The position numbers and the translations under genes are program-made. Positions 18,084-18,905 of a stretch of 64,000 bases of DNA are shown here, piece after piece. The notes under the pieces are model-generated. The model did no database searches and was not told where the DNA came from. It saw only the letters and a program-made list of their open reading frames with translations. The stretch is from Gammaproteobacteria bacterium (lineage in GTDB: Bacteria; Pseudomonadota; Gammaproteobacteria; CAISUE01). Location: the NCBI GenBank assembly GCA_021156105.1, contig JAJNBD010000007.1, positions 52,945 to 116,944 on the forward strand. Reading direction: 5' to 3'. Positions within the stretch are counted from its first letter, which is position 1; each line of letters starts with the position of its first letter.

Positions 18084-18404
18084 AAAAACAATAGAGTTAA
18101 AATTTCGATTATACCTGAGAGGCAAACAGAAAACTATTTATGAGATAACTTAAATTATTAAGTACGTATTTTTAGAGAAGCGTAAGAATTTTCCTTCTGC
18201 AAGGGACAAAATTTAGCGCCATTCTCGCGAAAGCAGGAATCCAGGGTTGCGAGGATAGCTTTAGGGTAAAGTTATGCACATTTAAAAAAAACAAAAGAAA
18301 AAAATTTTAAGAAAAACAACAACAGGGAACATTTTTTGTGGTAAATAACCTATCTTATTGATTATTTATAGTTTATTTTTGATTGATTATTTGCCAACCA
18401 CTCC

Positions 18405-18485
18405 ACTTGACCCGCCCATTTCATAAGGCTTCGCGAAGCTTTACCAAGGTTTTTCCACAAAGTTATCCACAGATTTTGTGAGTAA
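18405..18485 (+). repeat. DnaA-box cluster element, copy 1
   Basis: TTGACC...TAAGGCT, then TTTTCCACA-AAG-TTATCCACA, and an inverted TTACTCACA. Confidence 0.6.
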
Positions 18486-18718
18486 GTTCTTCCCTGTTAC
18501 TAAAGTACTTGAATATAGCAAGATTAAGTTAGTGAAGTTAACATTTAAATATTCTTTACGCATCGTTTTTATCAACTTCGTAAAGTTATTCACACCGATC
18601 AAACTTGTTAAGAAAAAAATTTGGCGAAAAACAACAGACCGCTAAATAGCTTGCAGTAATTATCTTAACTGGTTGTATTTACAGGCTTTATTTTAATACG
18701 CTTATTTCTTTAGCACAC

Positions 18719-18800
18719 CACTTGACCCACGCTATTTATAAGGCTTTGCGAAGTTTTACCAAAGCTTTTCCACAAAGTTATCCACAGATTTTGTGAATAA
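18719..18800 (+). repeat. DnaA-box cluster element, copy 2
   Basis: About 85% identical to copy 1, with the same three 9-mers. Confidence 0.6.
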
Positions 18801-18839
18801 CTTGATTGTGCTAACAAAGTCAAAAAAGAAACAAGAAGT

Positions 18840-18887
18840 TAAAACCTAAAAAAGGTAAGCAGCGGATTCAGCTATCCAGCTGCTTAC
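18840..18887 (-). terminator. rho-independent terminator of 18906 ORF
   Basis: GTAAGCAGC / GCTGCTTAC stem followed by a T-run on the minus strand. Confidence 0.55.
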
Positions 18888-18905
18888 TACCTTCCTTATT
18901 AGGTT

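Follow-up and report, generated by a model that had tools for sequence, protein, structure and literature searches.

What does a dense cluster of DnaA boxes do in the non-coding DNA upstream of pheS? The question is raised by a spacer in the window, by which we mean the whole stretch of 64,000 nucleotides that was analysed. The spacer (18084-18905) separates pheS (17013..18083, minus strand) from a convergent ORF (18906-19805). A preliminary description had recognised here a non-coding region with clusters of DnaA boxes and had read it either as a replication origin or as a DnaA-titration or regulatory locus. Both the region and the clusters are real, and the two readings fared differently, as set out below. 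The host, a gammaproteobacterium, has hemCDXY, the nearest named relatives of its GyrA are Legionella species (67-68% identity), and many ORFans and an ankyrin-repeat protein are present as well.

The limits of the spacer are set by its neighbouring genes. On the left, pheS is context and lies outside the element; its start has been placed at the ATG at 18083, but 18047 is likelier because the homologues are 344 aa long, and a perfect TATAAT is found near the gene at 18113-18108 on the minus strand. On the right, the intrinsic terminator of the ORF 18906-19805 (18848..18901, minus strand; -27.1 kcal/mol, z = -3.97, followed by a T-run) is the limit of the non-coding region that holds the first two units. 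The spacer consists of a tandem pair of units of about 315 bp, with 73-79% identity over 194-315 bp: the repeat finder reported 194 nt at a 315-nt period, and alignment of the full units gave 79% column identity.

Several earlier observations on this spacer stand in a changed form. The two elements at 18405-18485 and 18719-18800, described as about 85% identical, are present with 88% identity (73/83). They had been taken for repeats of about 85 bp, but the true repeat is the much longer unit of about 315 bp, and they are the best-conserved ends of this tandem duplication. Each carries, as reported, two boxes separated by three nucleotides, the second of which is perfect (TTTTCCACA-N3-TTATCCACA, 18451-18471 and 18766-18786). 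The inverted box TTACTCACA that had been ascribed to both is found in copy 1 (TGTGAGTAA, 18477-18485) and not in copy 2, where the inverted box is TTATTCACA (TGTGAATAA, 18792-18800). The cluster had been credited with six DnaA boxes; units 1 and 2 together contain seven with at most one mismatch plus one with two. The AT-rich stretch at 18280-18400 does not lie between the elements but inside unit 1, and unit 2 has a tract of its own. The boxes had been placed about 270 and 600 bp upstream of pheS; the trios in which they are grouped lie about 370-400 and 680-720 bp upstream, because pheS probably starts at 18047 or 18083 and not at the TTG at 18125. The promoter-like head TTGACC...TAAGGCT is conserved, but as a sigma-70 promoter it was rejected: its spacing is wrong, and the promoter scan returned four weak sites against 2.9 expected.

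It had also been suggested that further copies of the element be sought. One more is present in the 64-kb window, at 42256-42470, and had been missed before. This third unit lies 23.7 kb away, upstream of gyrA (39527..42109, minus strand), which is its left neighbour and is given for context only, and its orientation relative to gyrA is that of units 1 and 2 relative to pheS. No additional copy was found in the 10 kb of the contig further left of the window. The repeat finder proposed a fourth copy at 47213-47242, but only a short stretch (ACCACAAACTTAT) matches there, by chance, and the candidate was discarded.

The three units have a common layout, in which positions are numbered from the first base of box III. 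Box IV lies at about -179 and is followed by an A-rich tract and, at -100, by an IHF-type site; then come a Fis-like site at -66 and a 35-bp trio of DnaA boxes. The trio consists in all three units of TTTTCCACA (box III), 3 bp, TTATCCACA (box II), 5 bp and an inverted box of the form TGTGA(G/A)TAA (box I). All parts are given on the plus strand. In unit 1, box IV (TTATGCACA, one mismatch) is located at 18272..18280, 179 nt upstream of box III, and the IHF-type site (TATCTTATTGATT) at 18351..18363, at -100, with 8/9 matches to YAANNNNTTGATW. The Fis-like site of unit 1 (GATTATTTGCCAACC, 18385..18399, at -66) is degenerate, with 9/13 matches, and stands in register with the Fis consensus of the related loci described below, which occurs at no offset other than -66/-65. 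The trio of unit 1 extends over 18451..18485, with box III at 18451-18459, box II at 18463-18471 and box I (TGTGAGTAA) at 18477-18485. Unit 2 has its box IV (TTATTCACA) at 18586..18594, a degenerate IHF-type site (TAACTGGTTGTAT, 7/9) at 18666..18678, at -100, a Fis-like site (GCTTATTTCTTTAGC, 10/13) at 18700..18714, at -66, and the trio at 18766..18800 (TTTTCCACA, AAG, TTATCCACA, GATTT, TGTGAATAA). In unit 3, box IV (TTATGCACA) occupies 42256..42264, the IHF-type site (TAACCAATTGATA, 42336..42348, at -100) matches the consensus perfectly (9/9), the Fis-like site (GGGTATTTTTCAAGC, 42370..42384, at -66) has 10/13 matches, and the trio lies at 42436..42470 (TTTTCCACA, AAC, TTATCCACA, GCTTT, TGTGAGTAA).

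The three-box arrangement, with up to six mismatches in total, occurs three times in the window and not once in 200 shuffles, whereas single boxes with at most one mismatch number 23 window-wide against 15.7 expected, which is no significant enrichment. The signal is the arrangement of the boxes and not their count. The same arrangement is known from the DARS elements of E. coli, in which boxes I and II have opposite orientation, are spaced by 5 bp and are essential; ADP is released from the DnaA protomers bound to these two boxes (Sugiyama et al., PMC6868365). Each window copy has boxes I and II head-to-head with 5 bp between them and boxes III and II head-to-tail with 3 bp. The copies also share with DARS a non-coding chromosomal site outside oriC, being intergenic, with no skew switch and with no origin genes among the ORFs scanned. 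One scoring function recovered the E. coli DARS cores together with the window copies, and it found no such trio in datA.

Conservation of the units was assessed in a sister genome from JGI sample 3300045996, whose PheS and GyrA are 94% and 96% identical to those of the window. All three units are retained there. The orthologous trios are identical at 105/105 positions, i.e. 35/35 per unit, versus 628/902 (70%) in the spacer flanks, and trio identity of this extent at the flank rate has P ~3e-17. The paralogous trios within the window show 94% identity versus 46% at non-module positions. The trio is under strong purifying selection. Among the accessory parts, the sister orthologue of unit 1 has a perfect 9/9 IHF-type site (CAACCATTTGATT), unit 2 has a degenerate IHF-type site in both genomes, and the Fis-like site of the sister unit 3 (GGTTATTTTTCAACC) has 11/13 matches, counted by hand. 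The neighbour genes differ between the window and the sister genome, and the element is unchanged. In more distant relatives (PheS 68-74% and GyrA 82-86% identity) the pheS and gyrA spacers contain no element; therefore, these positions are specific to the lineage of the window, whereas modules of this type appear to be ancient. A metagenome scan returned only 6 loci, none of them from the contig of the window or from its sample, which appears to be absent from the collection.

A wider set of loci was collected by an exact-pattern scan of one genome per species, which gave 94 stretches. They belong almost all to Beta- and Gammaproteobacteria, including Moraxella, Azoarcus, Thauera, Zoogloea, Comamonadaceae, Neisseria, Endozoicomonas, Methylococcaceae, Chromatiales, Thioalkalivibrio, a Coxiella MAG and others, and most genomes have one match to the strict pattern. 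The accessory sites of these loci were scored in sequence that the search pattern does not cover. A perfect IHF consensus (YAANNNNTTGATW) is present at -110..-91 in 39/95 related sequences, and a match of at least 8/9 in 59/95; a Fis consensus of at least 12/13 is found at -66 or -65 only; and a forward DnaA box occurs at -180..-161 in 38/93 related loci. After dereplication to 82 clusters, an IHF consensus (≥8/9) is found at -112..-90 in 52 clusters versus 2 at each of two control offsets, a Fis consensus (≥11/13) at -72..-60 in 32 clusters versus 0 and 1, and box IV in 48 clusters, the control-offset counts for accessory parts ranging from 0 to 2. The window units share this register (-100, -66 and -179, with box IV of the related loci near -175). 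They differ from the related loci in box I, which is usually the perfect TGTGGATAA there and is TGTGAGTAA or TGTGAATAA in the window, and in that the Fis and IHF sites of the related loci are closer to consensus.

The genomic surroundings of these loci vary. The start of priA lies about 120 nt past box I on the same strand in 32 related loci; other frequent neighbours are xseA (12), exbB and hemE, and in the Coxiella MAG the element has a nuclease gene on one side and the 3' end of rne on the other. The element is thus independent of its neighbours, with priA, xseA, hemE and exbB elsewhere, pheS and gyrA in the window and the nuclease gene and rne in the Coxiella MAG. In two complete chromosomes it is found at 6.49 of 7.04 Mb and 1.99 of 2.17 Mb in record coordinates, and in a near-complete scaffold at 1.90 of 3.06 Mb.

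The units are probably functional DnaA-binding regulatory modules of DARS architecture that do not serve as origins, and the earlier suggestion of a DnaA-titration or regulatory locus is borne out in so far as the boxes have the arrangement of a DARS core and the IHF- and Fis-type sites are in a conserved register. The best explanation, which we favour with some reserve, is that they represent non-origin DnaA/IHF/Fis modules of about 220 bp with a DARS-type core, in which the IHF and Fis sites have changed places relative to DARS2. That the units specifically reactivate ADP-DnaA is proposed by analogy and tentatively, the case falling a little short of an even balance. That DnaA, IHF and Fis bind here, and most of all in which direction DnaA is affected, is what we infer from the sequence.

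In the DARS-type reading, DnaA would bind the perfect box II, and a second DnaA would be recruited head-to-tail to box III across the 3-bp spacer and a third head-to-head to the inverted box I across the 5-bp spacer. The ADP-DnaA dimer held head-to-head by boxes I and II would then shed its ADP, as it does in E. coli, and the resulting apo-DnaA would rebind ATP and become competent for initiation. Assembly or gating of the complex would fall, as in DARS2, to an IHF-induced bend at -100 and the Fis-type site at -66; the bend may also fold the DnaA bound to box IV (-179) back to the trio. What counts against this reading is the swapped accessory order, together with the weak 9-10/13 matches of the Fis-like sites in the window and the 7/9 of the degenerate IHF-type site in unit 2. 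The missing synteny with uvrB and mutH and the lack of the element at these positions in relatives count against it too.

Of the alternatives, the one that survives best would give the units the opposite, datA-like task, namely titration of DnaA or, with IHF, hydrolysis of DnaA-ATP, restraining initiation. The minimal parts of datA are four DnaA boxes and an IHF site (PMC11724364); each window unit has four boxes and an IHF consensus, and this shared parts list counts against the DARS reading. The units resemble datA further as a DnaA-box cluster with a single IHF site in non-coding DNA outside oriC (PMC11724364), and the datA IHF site, TAACCTATTGATA, is similar to that of the window; box II is a perfect high-affinity box, and, taken as a sink, three units within 24 kb would be of considerable size. 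However, the box layout of E. coli datA differs: it has no III-3-II-5-I trio, and instead a head-to-head pair with a 3-bp spacer and other boxes tens of bp apart. The trio geometry is specific to DARS cores and is the most strongly conserved part of the units, and simple titration would need neither fixed 3- and 5-bp spacers nor fixed sites at -100 and -66. We consider a sink or datA-like function unlikely.

Regulation of the neighbouring genes by DnaA, Fis and IHF (pheST and gyrA in the window, priA and others elsewhere), with no action on the nucleotide state of DnaA, is the next explanation to be weighed. The position of priA about 120 nt past box I in 32 related loci and the frequency of xseA, hemE and exbB agree with it, as do the location of E. 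coli DARS1 upstream of uvrB and, more generally, the DNA-metabolism neighbours found also in E. coli (uvrB, mutH); such neighbours (priA 32, xseA 12) suit a transcriptional role as well and to this extent count against the DARS reading. In addition, the three units lie upstream of essential genes in the same relative orientation, and in the sister genome a 425-aa ORF begins about 50 bp past box I of unit 1. The arrangement within the window nevertheless speaks against promoter control as the main role. Past box I, none of the three units is followed by a gene that reads away from it: beyond unit 1 comes unit 2, beyond unit 2 come the terminator and the convergent ORF, and from the end of unit 3 it is 16 bp to the stop codon of another convergent ORF. 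Between the trios and the start codons of pheS and gyrA there are 330-720 bp, pheS has its own nearby TATAAT, and no canonical promoter overlaps the trios. Moreover, the two sister genomes have different neighbour genes beside an invariant element. Promoter control in place of an action on DnaA is therefore rated as rather improbable, though it is to be kept in mind that the two roles could coexist.

That the region is oriC, or a second, dormant origin, is very improbable, and this half of the preliminary description is contradicted by skew (in the window and at the related loci), gene content and copy number. DnaA boxes, IHF-type and Fis-like sites and A/T-rich tracts are components of E. coli-type origins too. 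However, the GC skew, which had been proposed as the means of locating oriC, is negative in 32/32 2-kb bins of the window, and it changes sign neither at 18.5 kb nor at 42.4 kb nor elsewhere in the 74 kb that include the 10 kb further left. A Pfam search of 49 of the 62 window ORFs of at least 100 aa detected no dnaA, dnaN, gidA, rpmH or parAB. At related loci flanked by 2 kb or more to the left and to the right, the sign of the skew is the same to either side in 31/38 and shows an origin-type switch in 3/38 (left versus right skew, r = 0.75), and dnaA is not among the largest clusters of neighbour genes. The element occurs in three copies at two loci, unlike a single-site oriC. Its four boxes per unit, one of them inverted, form a trio with one distal box and not a head-to-tail array beside an unwinding element. 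A-rich tracts are present, and no repeated unwinding motifs were noticed by inspection.

The least credible explanation, a dispersed repeat, miniature mobile element or small structured-RNA gene that merely resembles DnaA boxes, could draw on the several copies, on the one Logan assembly that breaks inside the trio of unit 1 and on the gene gain or loss junctions 6-7 nt past box I at two loci, but it is opposed by the mostly single copies in related genomes, by conservation concentrated on protein-binding motifs at fixed offsets, by the lack of matches in viral or plasmid collections, of any Rfam family at gathering thresholds (the permissive search gave only a CrcZ match, E = 0.85) and of tRNA-scan hits, by folds that are inconsistent and not significant across copies on either strand (z -2.8 to +0.7), and by inspection, in which no terminal inverted repeats or target-site duplications were noticed. 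The preliminary description had envisaged that a dispersed, high-copy repeat with no relation to DnaA might lie behind the element; this is not so, because the element is low-copy, absent from the viral and plasmid collections, and most constrained in its DnaA-box trio.

If the DARS-type reading is correct, its significance reaches beyond the window. In the literature found, DARS elements are known only from E. coli and its close relatives, i.e. Enterobacterales, Vibrio, Shewanella and Aeromonas (PMC4245941, PMC11724364), and the loci collected here suggest that DARS-like control extends far past these relatives. For the wider, often priA-linked family, no description was found in the searchable literature, a scope that does not include the original 2009 DARS paper. 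It is conceivable, although we would put it below the probable, that the window units belong to an undescribed and widespread family of DARS2-type modules in Beta- and Gammaproteobacteria, and that DnaA recharging is ancient and general there. The layout of such a family, as predicted from the related loci, would be box IV, IHF site, Fis site and III-II-I trio, an order of IHF and Fis that reverses that of E. coli, usually in single copy and often beside priA; in the Legionella-related lineage, the module would have multiplied to three copies, two of them in tandem, with gene gain or loss junctions at the edge past box I.

The proposed layout can serve as a search signature, made up of the III-3-II-5-I trio, a further box near -175, and IHF and Fis sites at -100 and -66, respectively. 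Its presence in many beta- and gammaproteobacterial orders under strong constraint makes DnaA recharging outside the known species directly testable, and, if confirmed, chromosomal DnaA recharging would be general in these classes and not a speciality of the relatives of E. coli. For annotation, it follows that a dense DnaA-box cluster with AT-rich DNA is not necessarily an origin. More speculatively, modules gated by IHF and Fis could tie replication licensing to growth phase in Legionella-like bacteria, which live inside cells and pass through replicative and non-replicative phases in turn.

The comparison with the known elements of E. coli (MG1655) shows likeness in the core and differences in the accessory parts. 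The DARS1 core reads TAATACACA, 3 bp, TTATCCACA, 5 bp, AGTGGATAA, and the DARS2 core TTCTTCACA, 3 bp, CTATCCACA, 5 bp, GGTGAATAA. Box II of DARS1 is a full consensus box (PMC6868365), and the window resembles DARS1 in combining the trio geometry with a perfect box II, whereas box II of DARS2 is CTATCCACA. DARS1 is an element of 101 bp (PMC5742627) located upstream of a DNA-metabolism gene. A requirement for IHF and Fis is attached to DARS2 only in the literature found, and unit 2, with its degenerate IHF-type site, is the closest analogue of DARS1.

DARS2 activity requires IHF and Fis (Kasho et al., PMC4245941), and its core and its IHF and Fis sites are conserved in the 'E. coli-proximal' species, a term that covers Enterobacterales, Vibrio, Shewanella and Aeromonas (PMC4245941, PMC11724364). 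When E. coli DARS2 is oriented as the window units are, its IHF sites are found at -87/-71 and a Fis consensus at -125; the two IHF sites, IBS1-2, are 3 bp apart, as in Kasho et al. (PMC4245941). Like DARS2, the window units lie in non-coding DNA away from oriC and have, on the side of box III, an equally oriented IHF consensus at a similar distance (-100 in the window) and a Fis-type site, as well as additional distal DnaA boxes. They differ in order, since DARS2 runs core, IBS1-2, FBS2-3 and the Fis-like site of the window stands between the IHF-type site and the core, and, unlike DARS2, they are present in three copies, two of them in tandem; a likeness in activity is suggested by analogy. 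The action of datA on DnaA is opposite to that of DARS. As to location, the bioD-uvrB spacer of E. coli holds DARS1, upstream of uvrB, and the rppH-mutH region holds DARS2. The neighbours in the window are pheS, an ORFan and gyrA, with no synteny to uvrB or mutH. These positions argue against orthology with the E. coli DARS loci, but not against the same mode of action.

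The DnaA-box trio (box III, 3 bp, box II, 5 bp and inverted box I) makes up, together with a predicted IHF site at -100, a predicted Fis site at -66 and a further box near -175 (offsets counted upstream from the first base of box III), a module that is conserved, by sequence comparison, in 94 Beta- and Gammaproteobacterial genome loci. Most of these genomes carry one copy. The gene priA lies about 120 nt downstream of the module in 32 of the 94 loci, and other common neighbours are xseA, exbB and hemE; locus L023 (module match 811-838, priA 1178-3496) is one example of the family. 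No description of such a trio/IHF/Fis/box module family was found in the searchable literature. Several Moraxella carry two modules per genome, and in two Moraxella loci (L030, L039) the main trio is preceded, at a distance of about 70-90 nt, by a second pair of head-to-head boxes separated by 5 bp (TTATCTACA, A(T/C)(A/C)AT, TGTGGATTT).

Comparison of the window with the sister genome (JGI sample 3300045996) revealed that homology ends 6-7 nt past box I at two loci (18492-18581 versus L105 and 42476-43900 versus L112), and junctions of gene gain or loss coincide with the box-I edge of the module at both. Between units 1 and 2, the tandem modules upstream of pheS, the sister genome contains a 425-aa RING/U-box-like ORF (weak zf-Nse match, E = 0.0023), and the 414-aa ORFan adjoining unit 3 upstream of gyrA in the window (42487-43731) is missing from the sister genome. 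The tandem trios start at 18451 and 18766, 315 bp or 30.0 helical turns apart (10.5 bp per turn), a phasing at which the two would lie on the same helical face. This phasing may be a coincidence, because the corresponding spacing in the sister genome is 1638 bp and the 315 bp is therefore not conserved. A Logan contig from SRR15168755, assembled independently from the same organism, has its 5' end inside the unit 1 trio (...TTATCCACAGATTTTGTG). The repeat probably caused the assembly to break at this point, which lies 397 bp upstream of pheS.

The longest pheS ORF, on the minus strand, begins at TTG 18125, and the 344-aa length of the homologues points to ATG 18047 as the start; a perfect TATAAT is present at 18113-18108 on the same strand. 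Neither thrS-infC-rpmI-rplT genes nor a Phe-leader was seen upstream of pheS in the window. At the other end of the spacer, a strong intrinsic terminator on the minus strand (18848-18901, -27.1 kcal/mol, z = -3.97, followed by a T-run), which was missed by the consensus terminator scan, closes an unannotated 299-aa ORF (18906-19805). The 377-aa protein encoded at 20033-21166 on the plus strand combines an SBP_bac_3 periplasmic solute-binding domain with Lig_chan and Lig_chan-Glu_bd ligand-gated ion channel domains and is predicted to be a bacterial glutamate-receptor-like channel; the sister genome keeps this gene beside the same neighbouring ORFan.

Large ORFans make up a high share of the window, and many ORFs have no Pfam match (for example 3666-5306, 37773-39530, 45001-47163 and 47324-48844). 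Together with an ankyrin-repeat protein (21955-22629, minus strand) and Legionella species as the nearest named relatives of GyrA (67-68%), this suggests an uncultured Legionellales-like bacterium, probably host-associated. A glycogen/glucan gene cluster after proS (54217-63999) encodes a debranching enzyme (GDE_N/GDE_C), a GT4/starch-synthase-like transferase, a GH15 glucoamylase and a glucose dehydrogenase-like enzyme.

About 300 bp away from the DARS2 core, the ygdT-mutH spacer of E. coli MG1655 contains a second trio-like arrangement that is weaker (positions 952-986 of locus L098), consisting of TCTTACACC, 3 bp, TTATCCACA, 5 bp and CTGGGATAA with 4, 0 and 3 mismatches, respectively. This arrangement may represent the distal boxes of DARS2.
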